DNA of 64,000 nucleotides from Alphaproteobacteria bacterium (lineage in GTDB: Bacteria > Pseudomonadota > Alphaproteobacteria > UBA828), in contig CBDCCI010000002.1 in NCBI GenBank assembly GCA_965214705.1, positions 1,504,001 to 1,568,000 on the forward strand. Reading direction: 5' to 3'. Shown piece by piece: positions 1 to 31,344 of this stretch. The translations under genes and the position numbers were made by a program. The notes beneath the pieces were generated by a model, which saw only the letters and a list, made by a program, of their open reading frames with translations, was not told where the DNA came from and did not search any database. How positions within the stretch are numbered: the stretch's first letter is position 1; each line of letters starts with the position of its first letter.

Positions 1-60
1 TTCGTGCTCACCGCAGTATTGTTCGTCATCTACAGGCGCGTCTGGGCCAGGCTGCACTAG
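1..60 (+). CDS. 3' end of a membrane-anchored protein, probably cytochrome c1 (partial)
   Basis: Frame 1 reads FVLTAVLFVIYRRVWARLH*, resembling the cytochrome c1 C-terminal TM anchor (..LYxxKRxxWxxxH); only 19 aa visible. Confidence 0.5.
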   Translation, partial: FVLTAVLFVIYRRVWARLH

Positions 61-24975: not shown

Positions 24976-25527
24976 ATGATCCGCCTGTTCGTTGCTCTCG
25001 CGCTGCCGGAGGACGTGCGCCGCCGCATGGAGGGACTGCGCGGTGGACTGCCCGGCGCGCGCTGGCAAAGCGCGGAGCAGATGCACCTGACGCTGCGTTT
25101 CATCGGCGAGGTCGACGGCGGTGCTTTTCGCGAGATCGGGGACGCGCTCGCGGACATCGAAGCGGAGGCCTTCTCGCTGACGTTGGATGGAGTCGGGCAC
25201 TTCCCGCCGCGCGGGCGGGCGCGCATCGTCTGGGCTGGCGTGGTGCCGAACCCGGCGCTCGCGCACCTGCGCGAGCGCACCGAGGCCACCATCACCAGCC
25301 TCGGCTTCGAGCCCGACGGCCGCAACTATGCTCCGCACGTCACCCTCGCGCGCCTCACCTCGCGCGTGCCGGCCCACCGGATGCAAGACTTCGTCTCCTA
25401 CCACGGCATGTTCAACAGCGGGCCGTTCCCGGTGCGCTCGTTCGAGCTTTTCTCGAGCCATTTCGGCGCAGGCGGCGCGCATTACGAGATCGAGGCGAGC
25501 TACCCGCTGGCGGGCGCGGAAACCTAG
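24976..25527 (+). CDS. thpR: RNA 2',3'-cyclic phosphodiesterase (2H family)
   Basis: RLFVAL, HLTLRFIG, PHVTLAR. Confidence 0.92.
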   Translation: MIRLFVALALPEDVRRRMEGLRGGLPGARWQSAEQMHLTLRFIGEVDGGAFREIGDALADIEAEAFSLTLDGVGHFPPRGRARIVWAGVVPNPALAHLRERTEATITSLGFEPDGRNYAPHVTLARLTSRVPAHRMQDFVSYHGMFNSGPFPVRSFELFSSHFGAGGAHYEIEASYPLAGAET

Positions 25528-25557
25528 TCGTTGGCCGAGGCACCGGCGCGCGCCGCG

Positions 25558-25956
25558 TCATCCGGTTTCCTCGATCCGTTCCATGTCCTCGTCCGAAAGG
25601 CCGAAATGGTGGCCGATTTCGTGGATCAGCACGTGGCGGACCACGTCCTCCAGGCTGTTGCCGGTCTCGACCCAGTAGTCGAGGAGCGGCCGGCGGTAGA
25701 GGAAGATCAGGTCGACATCCTCGCGGATGTCGTGGACCCCGCTCTGGTCGAGGGAGACGCCCTGATAGAGGCCGAGCAGCTCGTAGGGGCTCTCAAGCTC
25801 CATTTCCTCCTGTACCTCGTCGCTGGGAAAGTCCACGACTTGGATCATCACCGGGTCGACCCTCTCGCGCATGAAGGCGGGAATCCGGCGGTATTCCCGA
25901 TCCGCGATCGACTCGATGTCCGCCGCGCTCGGCGCTTGGGTCTTCGCCCCGCTCAT
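25558..25956 (-). CDS. Minimal zincin-like metallopeptidase family protein
   Basis: LLGLYQG, LYRRPLL, HEIGHHFGLSD. Confidence 0.88.
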   Translation of the reverse strand: MSGAKTQAPSAADIESIADREYRRIPAFMRERVDPVMIQVVDFPSDEVQEEMELESPYELLGLYQGVSLDQSGVHDIREDVDLIFLYRRPLLDYWVETGNSLEDVVRHVLIHEIGHHFGLSDEDMERIEETG

Positions 25957-26060
25957 GACGGCAAGCCTAAGAGCAATTTGGTGTAAGCGGAACTAAGGTG
26001 CGTTGCGTCCCCGGCCCGAACGGGTGTGACAAGCCCCGATGCGCTGGCTCACGAATCAGC

Positions 26061-26089
26061 TTGCAGAGCCTATCCTGTGGGCATAGGTT
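26061..26089 (+). promoter_or_regulatory. Putative sigma70 promoter for the NYN leader RNA
   Basis: TTGCAG (26061-66), 17 bp, TAGGTT (26084-89). Confidence 0.5.
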
Positions 26090-26095
26090 TGCTTC

Positions 26096-26184
26096 AACAT
26101 AACCCATCGGACTACCGCCCAGACAGGGAGACACGGAGTCCGATTATCATCACCCCAGGGACGCCTCGCGCGTCCCTGTGTTTT
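26096..26184 (+). ncRNA. Putative ~90-nt structured leader RNA ending in an intrinsic terminator
   Basis: Stem ATCGGACT/AGTCCGAT (26106-13/26137-44) enclosing two AGACA copies; terminator CAGGGACGC/GCGTCCCTG + TGTTTT (26156-26184). Confidence 0.5.
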
Positions 26185-26196
26185 GTGGATTCCAAG

Positions 26197-26841
26197 ATGC
26201 CCAATGACGAGCCAGCTCCAGGGCCCCGCCATCGCGTGCGGGTGTTCGTTGACTTCTGGAATTTCACTCTCTCCATGCGGGATGCAGACGAGGCGTTCCG
26301 CACAGACTGGTCTCGGCTTGGACCGATACTTTCTCGCGCCGCGGCGACAGTCGTTGACGCCGCCGCCACAAGTGAATTTCAAGGACTGAATTTCTACGGC
26401 TCCTACGACCCGGTCAGCGAAGCAGACCGGAAACTTCACCGATGGGCGACGAGAGTGGTGGACACATTTCCCGGCGTGCGCGTGTCGATCGTTCCGCGTC
26501 AGAGGAGGCGTTCGCCGCCCGCGTGCCCCACCTGCCATGCGGCAGTGGCCGAGTGTCCTGCTTGCGGTGCCGATATGCGCGGCACCGAGGAGAAGGGCGT
26601 CGATGTCCGCATGGCAACGGACATGATCAGCCTTGCCTGGGTCGACAACTACGATGTCGCAGTTCTGGTCTCATCCGATCGCGACTTCGTGCCGGTAGCC
26701 GAGTTTCTCGAGACCAAGGGCATCAAGGTGATACACGGGGCTTTCCCGCCGAAGGGCGCGCAGTTGACCGCTCGATGCTGGGGAAGCATCGACATAGCCG
26801 GATTGCGGGAAGGGTTTCGCTTCGTCCGGCCTGAGTCCTGA
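26197..26841 (+). CDS. NYN (LabA/DUF88, PIN-like) ribonuclease with inserted zinc ribbon
   Basis: FVDFWN, EKGVDVRMATD, LVSSDRDFVP acidic catalytic motifs; CPTC-x5-CPAC insert. Confidence 0.88.
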   Translation: MPNDEPAPGPRHRVRVFVDFWNFTLSMRDADEAFRTDWSRLGPILSRAAATVVDAAATSEFQGLNFYGSYDPVSEADRKLHRWATRVVDTFPGVRVSIVPRQRRRSPPACPTCHAAVAECPACGADMRGTEEKGVDVRMATDMISLAWVDNYDVAVLVSSDRDFVPVAEFLETKGIKVIHGAFPPKGAQLTARCWGSIDIAGLREGFRFVRPES

Positions 26842-27065
26842 GGTGGCGACGCCCATTCGAAATGTCCGGCGGCTCGTTTAAGGTGCATTCGGGTTTTTCC
26901 GAGCAGCCTATCCTCCAATCAATCTGTCCGTTGGGCCGGTGGCGATGTGGGCAAAGCACGGGGTGGTTGCTTAAATCCGCCGTGGTAAAGAGAGTGCATG
27001 GCGCGTCGCCCAAGGGTGGGCGTGTCGTGTCGCGCTGCGTGGAGACCCAGAGGGAGGCCGGGACG

Positions 27066-27896
27066 GTGAGCAACAGAGAGGCGCTGCTGCGCGAACTGCG
27101 CGAGCAGGCGCTCGACATCCGTCGCAATACGTGGCGGGCGTTGCGTGCGGCGGGTTCCGGCCACATGGGGGGCTCGCTCTCCGTGGCCGATCTGCTGGCC
27201 GCACTCTACTTCCACTACCTCGACCTCCGGCCCGACGAGCCCGACTGGCCCGAGCGCGACCGCTTCGTGCTCTCCAAGGGGCACGCCAACACGGCGCTCG
27301 GCGCGGTGCTGGCCCAGGCGGGCTTCGTGGACGACGGCTTCATCGACACCTTCTACGCCTACGAATCGCGATTCGGCATGCACCCGGACATCAAGGTCCC
27401 CGGCATCGAGATGTGTACTGGCGCCCTCGGCCACGGCCTCTCCGTCGGGCTCGGCATGGCGCTCGGGTCCAGGCTGCAGGGCAAGGACTGGCGCACCGTG
27501 GTGATGCTGGGCGACGGCGAGCTGCAGGAAGGCTCGAACTGGGAGGCGGCCATGGCCGCCGCCCACCTGGCGCCGCTCCAGCTCACCGCCATCCTCGACT
27601 ACAACAAGGTGCAGCAGAGCGGCCATGTCGCCGAGATGCTGGGGCTGGAGCCGCTGGCGGACAAGTGGCGCACCTTCGGCTGGACCGTGCGCGAATGCGA
27701 CGGGCACGACATGGGAGAGATCGTCGATGCGCTTGACGCGCTGCCCGCCGCGCCCGACCGGCCCTCGCTGCTCATCGCCCACACGGTGAAGGGCAAGGGC
27801 GCGAGCTTCGCCGAGGACACCTACCTCTGGCACAACAACTTGGTGGGCGACGAGGTCTACGAGAAGGCCATGGCCGAGCTGGGAGAGCCCGCATGA
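27066..27896 (+). CDS. Transketolase, N-terminal (TPP-binding) subunit
   Basis: SGHMGGSLS, DRFVLSKGH, TGALGHG, GDGELQEG..N, TVKGKG; RBS GGGAGG. Confidence 0.92.
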   Translation: MSNREALLRELREQALDIRRNTWRALRAAGSGHMGGSLSVADLLAALYFHYLDLRPDEPDWPERDRFVLSKGHANTALGAVLAQAGFVDDGFIDTFYAYESRFGMHPDIKVPGIEMCTGALGHGLSVGLGMALGSRLQGKDWRTVVMLGDGELQEGSNWEAAMAAAHLAPLQLTAILDYNKVQQSGHVAEMLGLEPLADKWRTFGWTVRECDGHDMGEIVDALDALPAAPDRPSLLIAHTVKGKGASFAEDTYLWHNNLVGDEVYEKAMAELGEPA

Positions 27897-28873
27897 ATGC
27901 GCCCAAGCAGGGCAACGGGGCGGAGCCCGCCTGGGTCAAGGCGGCGGCCAACCAATCGCGATTGGCCTTCGGGCTTGCCGTGACCGAGCTCGGCCGGCGC
28001 GACGCGCGGGTGGTGGCGGTCGGCGCCGATACCCTCGACCTCATCGGGCTCAGGGGCTTCATCGAGCACGCGCCCGCGCGCGTCATCGACGTCGGCATCG
28101 CCGAGCAGAACGCCATGGGCGTGGCCGCAGGGCTCGCCACCACGGGGCTTCGCCCCTTCGTCTGCGGCTACGCGCCCTTCATCACCGCGCGCTCCATGGA
28201 GCAGATCCGCAACGAGGTCGCCTACGCCGATCAGCGCGTGGTGATCGGTGCGGCGGCGAGCGGGGTCTCGCTTGCGGTCTCCGGCGGCACGCATCATGCG
28301 CTGGAGGACCTCGCGCTGATGCGGAGCCTGCCCAACATGACGGTGCTGGTGCCGGCGGACGCCCACGAGGCGTGGCACGCGACGCTGGCGACCGATGAGA
28401 TCGACGGCCCCGCTTACATCCGCCTCGGCGGGCGCGTGCCGGAGCCCCCGGTGACGCCGGTCGATGCGCCCTTCGGCCTCGGCAAGGCCACGTGTCTCGC
28501 CGAGGGCTCGGACGTTGCCGTGATCGCCTGCGGGGCCCTGGTGGCGCCAGCCGTGGACGCGGCAAAGGAACTCGCCGAGCAGGGTGTCGGCGCGCGCGTC
28601 CTCAACATGTCCACCATCAAGCCGCTCGACGAGGATGCGATTCTCGCCGCTGCCGAGGAGACGCGCGGCATCGTCACCGCCGAGGAGCATCATCTGACCG
28701 GCGGGCTCGGCGGCGCGGTGGCGGAGCTGCTGGCGGTCAAGCGGCCCACGCCCATGCGCCTGGTCGGCATGCCCGACGAGTTCGCGGTCGTCGGCCCGAC
28801 CGATCGCATCCGCGCGCGCTACGGCATGAGCGCCCGGCACATCGTGGACGCCTGCCTCGATCTGTTGAGCTAG
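27893..28873 (+). CDS. Transketolase, C-terminal subunit
   Basis: GIAEQN, GGTHHALED, TIKPLD, EEH..GGLG; ATGA overlap. Confidence 0.92.
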   Translation: MNAPKQGNGAEPAWVKAAANQSRLAFGLAVTELGRRDARVVAVGADTLDLIGLRGFIEHAPARVIDVGIAEQNAMGVAAGLATTGLRPFVCGYAPFITARSMEQIRNEVAYADQRVVIGAAASGVSLAVSGGTHHALEDLALMRSLPNMTVLVPADAHEAWHATLATDEIDGPAYIRLGGRVPEPPVTPVDAPFGLGKATCLAEGSDVAVIACGALVAPAVDAAKELAEQGVGARVLNMSTIKPLDEDAILAAAEETRGIVTAEEHHLTGGLGGAVAELLAVKRPTPMRLVGMPDEFAVVGPTDRIRARYGMSARHIVDACLDLLS

Positions 28874-29891: not shown

Positions 29892-31316
29892 CTAAGCCGT
29901 TGACATAGAGGCATTTGTGTTTTTGTTGTCGTCGTCGATCTCGACCAGTTGGAAGCCGAGCTTCTTGGCCTGTCGACGGAGCGAAGAGAACTTTCGGTCC
30001 AGGCGTCGGCTCTCGTAGACCTCCATCCCCTTCTCGGCATATTGCTGGCCGCGGGTCACCATCAGGTAGATCAGGCAGGCGAGTTCTCGGGCGGTGGCGA
30101 CAACGGCTACGCTGGTGTCCATCCGGGCGAGGCGGCTGCGGTGCTTGGCGCCGATGAAGGTTTGGCTGGTGCGAGCGGTCATGGCCGCCATGCGCAGTGC
30201 CTGGCCAACGCGGTTGACCACCTTGGGCCCCCGGCCCGGCAACGGTTTGCCGCCGCTGATCCTGGTCCCAGGCGCCAGCCCCAGCCAGGAACTGAAGTGC
30301 TGTGCGGAGGGAAAGGCGGAGAAGTCAGGACCGATCTCGGCGGCGATCACCAGGGCAGTGTTGACGCCGACGGTGGGGATTGCGGTGAGATCGACCCCCA
30401 TCATCTTATGCAGCGCCATAGCCATGGCCTTATCCTGCCCGCGGAGCGCCCTGCCGCTGCTGCTTGGGGTCTCGTTCGACGCCGTGCCCGATGATCCGAC
30501 ACTGGGAGTGTCCTCGGGCGTACCCTCATCCGTCGGATCGTCCGGCGGGGTCAGGTGCTCAACCTCCGCCATGATCCGCGCCTCGCAGTCCGCGATCTGC
30601 TGCTCCAGAAAGTCGTAGCGCTGCATCGCCTGCTCAAGCGCGAACAGGTGCTCCTCGCGCCAAGTGCCCTCCAGGCTCGCGGCAATCGTGTCGGCGCTGG
30701 CCTTGATCCGCCTGTCGCGAAGCGACGCCAGCCGCCCGGGGTCGCGCTCGCCGGCGATGATCGCCCGCAGGATGCGCTCACCCGTCTTCCCCATGATATC
30801 GCTGATCACCGAGTCCAGACGCACGTTCATCTGGGTCAGCGCCTTCTGCATATGCAGCACGCAGCGAGAGCGGTCCTCGATCAACTGCTTCGCCTGGCGC
30901 ATGAAGGAGCGCAACGGGCAGATCGCGTCGCCCGGCCGGAAGGCGCCGCGCAGAAGGCCGTAGGACATCAGCTGCCAGATCCACTGGCAGTCCAGCACAT
31001 CGCTCTTGCGCCCGCCGATCTGCTTCGTCATCCGGGGCGGCACAAGCATCACCTCGAAGCCGGCTCGATCCAGGACCTCGTAAACCGGGATCCAGTAGAC
31101 CGAGGTCGACTCCATCGCCACCTTCGTCACACCGCACGACTTCAGCCACTCGGCCATCGCATCCAGGTCGCGCGTGAACGCGCCGAACTCCCTCACCGGT
31201 TCCTCGGCTCGCTCCGGATCCACCGCCACGAAGTGCCGGTCCTTGCCGATGTCGATCCCGGCGCAATTCGGGTGCACTACCTTGAGGCGCTGCCTCCTTC
31301 TCCGCTTGCGCGCCAT
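29892..31316 (-). CDS. IS110 family recombinase/transposase
   Basis: DEDD RuvC motifs GIDIG, MEST, KSDVLD; Tnp-domain serine in TRISGG; ATARELA; RBS GGGAGGG. Confidence 0.95.
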   Translation of the reverse strand: MARKRRRRQRLKVVHPNCAGIDIGKDRHFVAVDPERAEEPVREFGAFTRDLDAMAEWLKSCGVTKVAMESTSVYWIPVYEVLDRAGFEVMLVPPRMTKQIGGRKSDVLDCQWIWQLMSYGLLRGAFRPGDAICPLRSFMRQAKQLIEDRSRCVLHMQKALTQMNVRLDSVISDIMGKTGERILRAIIAGERDPGRLASLRDRRIKASADTIAASLEGTWREEHLFALEQAMQRYDFLEQQIADCEARIMAEVEHLTPPDDPTDEGTPEDTPSVGSSGTASNETPSSSGRALRGQDKAMAMALHKMMGVDLTAIPTVGVNTALVIAAEIGPDFSAFPSAQHFSSWLGLAPGTRISGGKPLPGRGPKVVNRVGQALRMAAMTARTSQTFIGAKHRSRLARMDTSVAVVATARELACLIYLMVTRGQQYAEKGMEVYESRRLDRKFSSLRRQAKKLGFQLVEIDDDNKNTNASMSTA

Positions 31317-31344
31317 CGAGAGCCCTCCCAAACTCCGTTGACGT

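Follow-up and report, generated by a model that had tools for sequence, protein, structure and literature searches.

How does the gene for a small ribonuclease come to sit directly behind a structured RNA and a transcription terminator, with no companion protein gene at its side? The question is raised by a cassette at 26061-26841 of the stretch of alphaproteobacterial DNA analysed here, called the window below (64,000 nucleotides (nt), positions 1,504,001 to 1,568,000 of contig CBDCCI010000002.1; coordinates count from its first letter). The cassette begins with a promoter, which is followed by a two-hairpin RNA with an intrinsic terminator at its end and then by a gene for a 214-amino-acid (aa) NYN-domain protein with a four-cysteine (Cys4) zinc ribbon. 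A first-pass annotation of the letters alone had named the promoter, the structured RNA, the terminator and the NYN gene, all of which were found where it placed them, and had proposed an NYN-based analogue of the type III toxin-antitoxin systems. Is the RNA conserved? Is it only the leader of the NYN mRNA, or a gene of its own? And what would it do to the nuclease? The cassette is most likely a mobile module of two genes, one for a small structured RNA and one for a zinc-ribbon NYN ribonuclease, in which the RNA keeps the nuclease in check.

A covarying two-hairpin RNA beside NYN genes

The predicted small RNA of ~90 nt lies on the + strand at 26096-26186, its start being placed from the promoter and its end from the U tract of the terminator. 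On the 5' side of hairpin 1 it carries a single-stranded ACCC (26102-26105, + strand), which corresponds to the near-invariant columns A10, C11, C12 and C13 of alignment A3 and is retained in divergent and reduced variants of the RNA. Hairpin 1 (26106-26144, + strand) has an outer stem of 8 bp, ATCGGACT at 26106-26113 pairing with AGTCCGAT at 26137-26144, around CCG-CCC-AGACA-GGG-AGACA-CGG. Inside it CCG pairs with CGG (26115-26117/26134-26136) and CCC with GGG (26118-26120/26126-26128), leaving a variable apical loop and a 3' bulge, both of which read AGACA in the window. An A/U-rich linker followed by a conserved CC(CC) (26145-26155, + strand; consensus uAUuauaACCCC in models R1 and R2) leads to hairpin 2 (26156-26186, + strand). 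This is a 9-bp stem with the loop CTCGC, CAGGGACGC-CTCGC-GCGTCCCTG at 26156-26178, followed by the U tract TGTTTTG, and a terminator scan called it as an intrinsic terminator.

Does this structure belong to NYN genes in general? The covariance model R1 matches the window at 26094-26191 with 94.7 bits, the sole copy in the 7.9-Mb genome. Our reference set comprised 80 fetched genome loci and the window (81 sources, with taxonomy taken from record titles), spanning Alpha- and Gammaproteobacteria, Binatia, Gemmatimonadota, Acidobacteriota, Latescibacterota, Rhodothermales, Spirochaetia, Chloroflexota and Actinomycetota. R1 matched on the + strand upstream of NYN in 79 of the 81 sources at E<=1e-7 and the other two have the RNA on the opposite strand, so that all 81 carry it; between -35 box and start codon the upstream regions are visibly similar. 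A second set of 80 metagenome contig loci held more distant NYN homologues, 38-78% identical to the protein of locus L107. Here 76 of the 80 have the RNA, 64 by R1 and 12 more by R2, a model built from the wider set. The four misses are L170, which is without upstream DNA, L216 and L219, where little upstream DNA was examined and the NYN proteins have apparent long N-terminal extensions, and L227, which carries an array described below. On small plasmids (6.3-12.4 kb) of cultured Novacetimonas, Pararoseomonas, Paracoccus, Aeromonas and Cobetia the NYN gene adjoins rep/mob genes, and the RNA is present on all five. Among 20 loci of distant NYN paralogues (L009-L028) there was one weak RNA match (L024, 21 bits). 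The same-strand upstream layout, ending in a terminator before the start codon, holds for 154 of the 162 RNA-bearing loci (79 genome, 72 metagenome and 3 plasmid).

How firmly is the fold established? Taken singly, the window sequence offers modest support (26090-26200 folds at -38.3 kcal/mol, z -2.87, with 2 of 200 shuffles equally good). Comparison across loci is far more telling. A MAFFT alignment made before any model existed gave 15 pairs with RNAalifold, 11 of them with compensatory changes, and recovered the outer stem independently. In the R1 alignment 94% of the cells are paired and 18 of the 23 pairs show compensatory changes; none of 500 shuffles scored as high, and controls slid along the sequence reached 31-50% paired. 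The shuffle count should not be read as a probability, since the model itself shaped the alignment and the sequences share ancestry; the slid controls and the model-free alignment are better guides. The 10-pair helix of hairpin 1 has compensatory changes in every pair (90.5% of cells paired), and hairpin 2 in six of its nine pairs (99.4% of cells paired). G-U pairs are frequent, which places the structure on the transcribed strand. The first-pass annotation had suggested looking for a conserved, covarying structure upstream of homologues, and the outcome was strongly positive. The RNA is a conserved element whose structure is under selection, and its motif is new relative to Rfam 15: a cmscan search of window positions 25000-28000 with E up to 10 gave three weak hits, none overlapping 26090-26190.

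What stays constant and what varies? Over the full range of loci the constant features are the 5' (A/G)CCC, hairpin 1, the A/U linker, and CCCC with hairpin 2 (GGGR/YCCC base and U tract). In L148 and the gammaproteobacterial plasmids only a loop is left of the inner part of hairpin 1. Across the family the apical loop and bulge vary; in the window, L029 and L030 they are identical. The duplicated AGACA, which had been singled out as a meaningful feature, carries no broader significance: it is lineage-specific, occurring in the window and in 2 of the 80 other loci, both close relatives (the same L029 and L030). The base of hairpin 2 (CAGGG..CCCTG) behaves differently, its very sequence being almost invariant across phyla, and CCAGGGACGC was found at <=2 mismatches in 76 of the 81 upstream regions.

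The promoter-like element TTGCAG-17-TAGGTT (+ strand, 26061-26089) was recognised from the sequence, with TTGCAG at 26061-26066, a 17-nt spacer and TAGGTT at 26084-26089; a generic sigma-70 scan called no site there. Across 80 RNA copies the pattern TTGNNN-16..18-NANNNT is present in 69, and in 63 of these its -10 end sits 16-18 nt before hairpin 1. From this placement, transcription would start near 26096 and the RNA would be ~90 nt long. The terminator lies a few tens of nt upstream of the NYN start codon, a space into which a second promoter would not fit. Both hairpins coexist in the minimum-free-energy (MFE) fold of 64 of the 80 copies, which makes termination the default. Two database gene calls (P0108 and P0110) and the window open reading frame (ORF) 26026-26841 run the NYN protein upstream through the RNA, with the terminator translated as PGTPRASL; such N-terminal extensions look like annotation artefacts. 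RNA data come from metatranscriptome (Logan) contigs of relatives in four runs, mostly <95% alike, in which DNA carry-over is possible and which we take as weak, neutral evidence; stretches that they leave uncovered carry no information. Between them the contigs cover the RNA core and NYN, one of them (X19 record 19) spanning the core at 26116-26179.

Downstream, the NYN gene starts with an ATG at 26197 and ends at 26841 (+ strand, 214 aa). Its sole Pfam match is NYN (PF01936, residues 13-184, E 1.9e-14, 54.8 bits against a cutoff of 24.2), and NCBIfam gave only a sub-threshold match to TIGR00288. The Cys4 zinc-ribbon insert (C110, C113, C120 and C123; 26524-26565, + strand) lies within the NYN fold, and all four cysteines are invariant in alignment A2. 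In 30 homologues three acidic residues never vary (D19, D161 and D163) and two hardly do (D136 and D142), which makes them candidate active-site residues. An AlphaFold2 model (mean predicted local distance difference test score, pLDDT, 82.5) finds its best Foldseek matches in the Protein Data Bank (PDB) in the LabA-like protein 2qip and the MARF1 NYN domain (5yaa and 6fdl); a sequence search of the PDB found no relative. The protein has many homologues (907 clusters at E<=1e-5, the best 120 being 66-88% identical; 334 clusters at E<=1e-10 when clustered at 50% identity).

Is there a protein antitoxin after all? The first-pass annotation had seen none, and the wider comparison agrees. All-against-all blastp of ORFs of at least 70 aa, over ~4 kb on each side where the contig allowed, revealed no conserved neighbour in the 81 loci besides NYN and its antisense frames. 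The next-largest cluster is found at 12 of the 81 loci, at inconsistent positions.

RNA genes on the strand opposite NYN

If the RNA were only a leader, it should always precede the NYN gene on the same strand. In eight loci it does not. The RNA is adjacent to NYN and transcribed divergently in all six members of the Hoeflea/Aliishimia subclade and on the Aeromonas and Cobetia plasmids, and each of the eight RNAs has its own promoter and its own terminator. In L102 (Hoeflea marina DSM 16791) and L107 the RNA is encoded on the opposite strand at a distance of 120-230 nt from NYN, with a TTGACA promoter and a different, generic terminator; whole-genome RNA searches of these two genomes gave the site beside NYN as their best match. 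All four metagenome relatives in the subclade (L149-L152) share this divergent layout. The two plasmids represent another part of the family, their NYN proteins being only 33-37% identical to that of the window. Their RNA promoter (TTGTTC or TTGCAC, a spacer of 16-17 nt, TATAAT) extends over the start codon of NYN, which is read from the opposing strand (L250:2897-3010 and L251:631-745). Should NYN be transcribed from further upstream on these plasmids, its 5' untranslated region would be antisense to the RNA.

Has the structure survived the inversion? Among the eight divergent RNAs 89% of the cells are paired and compensatory changes occur in 19 of the 23 pairs; slid controls reached 27-48% paired. 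The base of hairpin 2 is retained on both gammaproteobacterial plasmids though it no longer precedes NYN. An inverted RNA kept under structural selection beside NYN in two separate clades must be more than a leader of the NYN mRNA. The RNA is an independent gene of its own. The inversion is also the strongest argument available, from comparative sequence, that the RNA would act in trans with NYN.

What the RNA may do to the nuclease

What known system does such a pair resemble? Type III toxin-antitoxin systems (ToxIN, CptIN, TenpIN; AbiQ/antiQ) consist of a promoter, an RNA antitoxin gene, a Rho-independent terminator and an endoribonuclease toxin gene, with no protein antitoxin, and their antitoxin genes are tandem arrays of short direct repeats (~34-37 nt). 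We know of only three type III families, all with repeat-array RNAs and non-PIN toxins. The module shares their gene order in the window and in 79 of the 81 genome loci, eight loci being divergent instead. It also lacks a protein antitoxin and is compact, mobile and found on plasmids; for a role in abortive infection or plasmid stabilisation, its presence on five small plasmids is circumstantial evidence. It differs in three respects. Its putative toxin has an NYN/PIN-like fold with a zinc ribbon, and by Pfam and fold matches is not ToxN/AbiQ, CptN or TenpN; its RNA is a single two-hairpin unit and not a repeat array; and its RNA gene can be divergent from the nuclease gene.

The claim of a single non-repeat RNA held for all loci but one. 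In L227 (1295-1500) a consensus promoter is followed by a 35-nt x 2.3 array of an 'ACCGCC + hairpin' unit, a third hairpin, a terminator and an NYN gene whose product is 38% identical to the L107 protein. This is the sole repeat-array version among ~160 loci, and as a tandem array of the RNA unit it is a further likeness to type III. The proposal of an NYN-based type III analogue stands in its anatomy, in the absence of a protein partner, in its conserved and covarying RNA and in the behaviour of that RNA as its own gene; the module departs from type III in the missing repeat array and in a protein outside the known toxin families.

How would the module work as a toxin-antitoxin system? In the common layout a single promoter would serve the RNA and, past the terminator, NYN, so that the nuclease would be made by read-through only and the RNA would be in excess. 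In the divergent layout the excess would come from the RNA's own near-consensus promoter. The RNA would bind the NYN protein and restrain its ribonuclease activity. A drop in RNA supply, through phage transcription shut-off or the loss of the plasmid or island, would then leave free NYN to cut cellular or invader RNA. By analogy with the known systems, we tentatively favour a type III-like module, for toxin-antitoxin or abortive-infection action, whose toxin fold would be new and whose RNA is not a repeat array, a reading that comes close to an even chance. We are slightly more reserved about its fuller version, in which the window cassette would be the founding example of widespread RNA-protein addiction or immunity modules, where a single structured, non-array RNA neutralises a zinc-ribbon NYN ribonuclease. 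They would form a fourth, NYN-based type III/abortive-infection family, which horizontal transfer would have carried to at least nine phylum-level groups, onto small plasmids and into prophages.

Other nuclease systems are instructive here. VapBC type II modules have a PIN-like, metal-dependent small ribonuclease toxin in a compact addiction module that is often plasmid-borne. VapC is neutralised by an upstream-encoded protein antitoxin, whereas the module has a structured RNA at that place and no conserved protein partner. LabA/MARF1-type NYN proteins (2qip, 5yaa and 6fdl) share the NYN fold and are the best structural matches, but are only 11-19% identical in sequence and are without the module's Cys4 insert; we know of no RNA gene associated with them. 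In a literature search at the level of titles and abstracts, no paper turned up that connects NYN proteins with an RNA motif upstream of them or with type III systems.

The nearest phage-tested relative by profile is HEC-09 (PADLOC PDLC04163), an Hma-embedded candidate in defence loci whose source describes a zinc-ribbon-like region and a MARF1-like NYN domain (10.1101/2024.01.29.577857). Like the NYN protein of the module it is a single protein combining these two parts, and the profile matches with E 8.8e-14. The match is partial, covering residues 117-187 of the module NYN and profile positions 88-159 (72 of 203), and HEC-09 is described with an N-terminal IF2B/5-like domain. The main-text passages of the source that describe it mention no RNA partner (10.1101/2024.01.29.577857).

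Several observations weigh against a toxin-antitoxin function. As its source reports, HEC-09 gave no defence against the phages tried (10.1101/2024.01.29.577857). Many loci of the module lie among ordinary metabolic genes rather than in defence islands. A repeat array is characteristic of the known type III systems, and Tandem Repeats Finder detected no tandem repeat at 25950-27060 of the window. Elsewhere NYN/LabA-type proteins have non-toxic roles in housekeeping or regulation, and the fold alone is not evidence of toxicity. The near-invariant sequence of the hairpin 2 base is not explained by the model as it stands. A metatranscriptome contig (X20 record 27) spans 26152-26640 and bridges the terminator into NYN, though ends, strand and levels are not readable from contigs. 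Does the decay of the cassette, with RNA kept and NYN broken, at least speak for toxicity? We rejected this argument, as the NYN gene (~640 nt) is a seven-fold larger target than the RNA (90 nt). Given this target size, and because the copies were found by an RNA-based search, the decay pattern does not discriminate.

The rival that survives best is a ribonucleoprotein or processing pair with no toxin-antitoxin role, in which the RNA would be an obligate cofactor, a specificity subunit or a dedicated substrate of NYN, for example an RNA that NYN matures and that then has its effect elsewhere, or a scaffold through which the nuclease is activated or directed to its target. We consider this unlikely. 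The linkage and the evidence for action in trans support it as well as they support a toxin-antitoxin system, and it would suit the housekeeping surroundings of many loci. The single-stranded ACCC/CCCC elements and the hairpin 2 base are conserved in sequence, suggesting specific protein contacts; that the base persists in the divergent gammaproteobacterial copies likewise suggests contact with a protein. Against it, a selfish or defensive module would better account for so sporadic a distribution, for the presence on tiny plasmids and for the frequent decay, and an RNA excess enforced by a terminator suits an inhibitor and is unnecessary for a 1:1 cofactor. The identity of the loop and bulge in the window, L029 and L030 is contrary to a programmable guide, and the guide-RNA idea was rejected on this ground.

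Could the hairpins be a purely cis-acting leader, either a constitutive attenuator of the NYN mRNA or one autoregulated by NYN, with no function of the RNA as such? Such leaders exist before other ribonuclease genes: the 5' leaders of E. coli rne and rnc are structured and autoregulatory, act only in cis and are not separable genes. The module resembles them in having a structured leader before a ribonuclease gene, on which the enzyme itself could act, and the 154 same-strand loci, with the terminator just before the start codon and the hairpin 2 base conserved in sequence, are what a leader would look like. It departs from them in that its RNA is retained when inverted. The eight opposite-strand RNAs, in two unrelated NYN clades and each with its own promoter and terminator, are still covarying, where a useless leader should have decayed, and the two gammaproteobacterial plasmids keep the hairpin 2 base although it has lost its position ahead of NYN. 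RNAs that are divergent yet still adjacent to NYN are predicted by an RNA partner and not by a pure leader, which we regard as rather improbable. Autoregulation may operate alongside a role in trans in the common layout.

A metabolite-sensing riboswitch acting on NYN through the terminator would also fit the order of promoter, structured RNA, terminator and gene. It is very improbable: hairpin 1 is one irregular hairpin with variable loops and an inner part that is dispensable (L148 and the plasmid variants), divergent-strand copies exist, and no Rfam 15 family matches. An antiterminator was rejected because no pairing that covaries or competes with the hairpins was found, and in the 64 copies noted above the two coexist instead of excluding each other. 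With these folds and the eight opposite-strand loci, the cis-only action and exclusive folds of a riboswitch or attenuator are not seen. A chance hairpin before an ordinary terminator, to which the moderate single-sequence score (z -2.87) might have pointed, is refuted by conservation and covariation across >160 loci and keeps a negligible probability.

What would follow from a toxin-antitoxin or abortive-infection module of this kind? A structured, non-repeat RNA controlling an NYN/PIN-like ribonuclease would widen the range of RNA antitoxin forms, and the large, mostly uncharacterised bacterial NYN family would be linked to RNA partners. Whatever the mechanism, the loci (>160) define a new, strongly covarying RNA motif, absent from Rfam 15 and with a clear protein partner. 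Cultured, tractable carriers are at hand in Hoeflea marina DSM 16791, Paracoccus seriniphilus DSM 14827 and Novacetimonas hansenii C110.

Insertion, spread and turnover of the cassette

How did the cassette reach its place in the window? It had been described as standing alone between unrelated genes, and comparison within the genus bears this out. Five NYN-less genomes of the same genus (L230, L232, L233, L234 and L236) have the zincin gene directly joined to the transketolase gene. In blastn of window positions 25401-27600 against them, homology ends at 25970 and restarts at 27033-27052; in the NYN-less genomes themselves about 46-94 nt separate the two blocks. These breaks identify the cassette as an insert of ~1.08 kb (25971-27051, unstranded), whose only cargo is the RNA gene and the NYN gene. 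An NYN orthologue is present in 2 of 20 same-genus genomes.

How far has the module travelled? NYN homologues 55-96% identical occur across at least nine phylum-level groups, by record title. Near-identical RNAs accompany NYN proteins of this identity range in metagenome-assembled genomes (MAGs) of at least nine such groups (loci L029-L108). Several record titles name sponge or coral metagenomes, as do the labels of several DNA runs (among X7-X16) that contain 34-45% of the sampled words. Together these observations suggest recent cross-phylum transfer of the module in host-associated communities. With such protein identities across phyla, and with titles and runs pointing to these habitats, the module could serve as a tracer of horizontal transfer in sponge- and coral-associated communities.

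What surrounds it elsewhere? Pfam assignments for 146 nearest neighbours at 51 loci include many metabolic genes, a type I restriction subunit, DDE transposases and integrases, and RES, AbiEii, KwaB-like and PIN proteins. In an Erythrobacter MAG (L084:2283-5849) the cassette lies between the genes for a phage terminase large subunit and a portal protein, a moron-like position in a prophage; a search of a phage collection gave a single weak partial match only. One contig (L060:1040-6305) holds an RNA-ligase-like ORF, an orphan RNA copy, an opposite-strand fragment of a different NYN/PIN-like gene, an Xre-like/RES pair, an intact cassette and a second RES-domain gene, and looks like a small toxin-antitoxin island.

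Copies also come and go. Searches of 35 genomes found 40 RNA copies, and the five extra ones comprise a second intact cassette (L076), a copy with a frameshifted NYN (L132), one with a 38%-identical NYN and a reduced RNA (L148) and two with NYN remnants (L146 and L147). In L066 an insertion sequence (IS) element separates the RNA from a truncated NYN, and in L060 the Xre/RES pair lies between the orphan RNA and the intact cassette. This turnover of RNA and NYN copies is typical of accessory modules.

By Pfam, the genes flanking the window cassette and unrelated to it encode a LigT-like 2'-5' RNA ligase/phosphoesterase (24976-25527, + strand) and a Zincin_1 peptidase on the opposite strand (25558-25956, - strand), both left of the insert, and a split transketolase. 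The LigT-like, RNA-repair-type neighbour resembles the RNA-ligase-like ORF of L060, and is not conserved across loci. Three short direct repeats (D5-D7, 10-11 nt) pair positions within 25994-26086, upstream of the RNA promoter, with positions within 26879-26956, downstream of NYN. A MAFFT alignment of the two flanks was unconvincing and gave no alignable duplication; the repeats may have been left by a tandem cassette or by recombination, or be due to chance. Some 3 kb downstream of the cassette lies an ORF of 479 aa (29892-31331, - strand), by the look of its sequence a putative IS110-type transposase.

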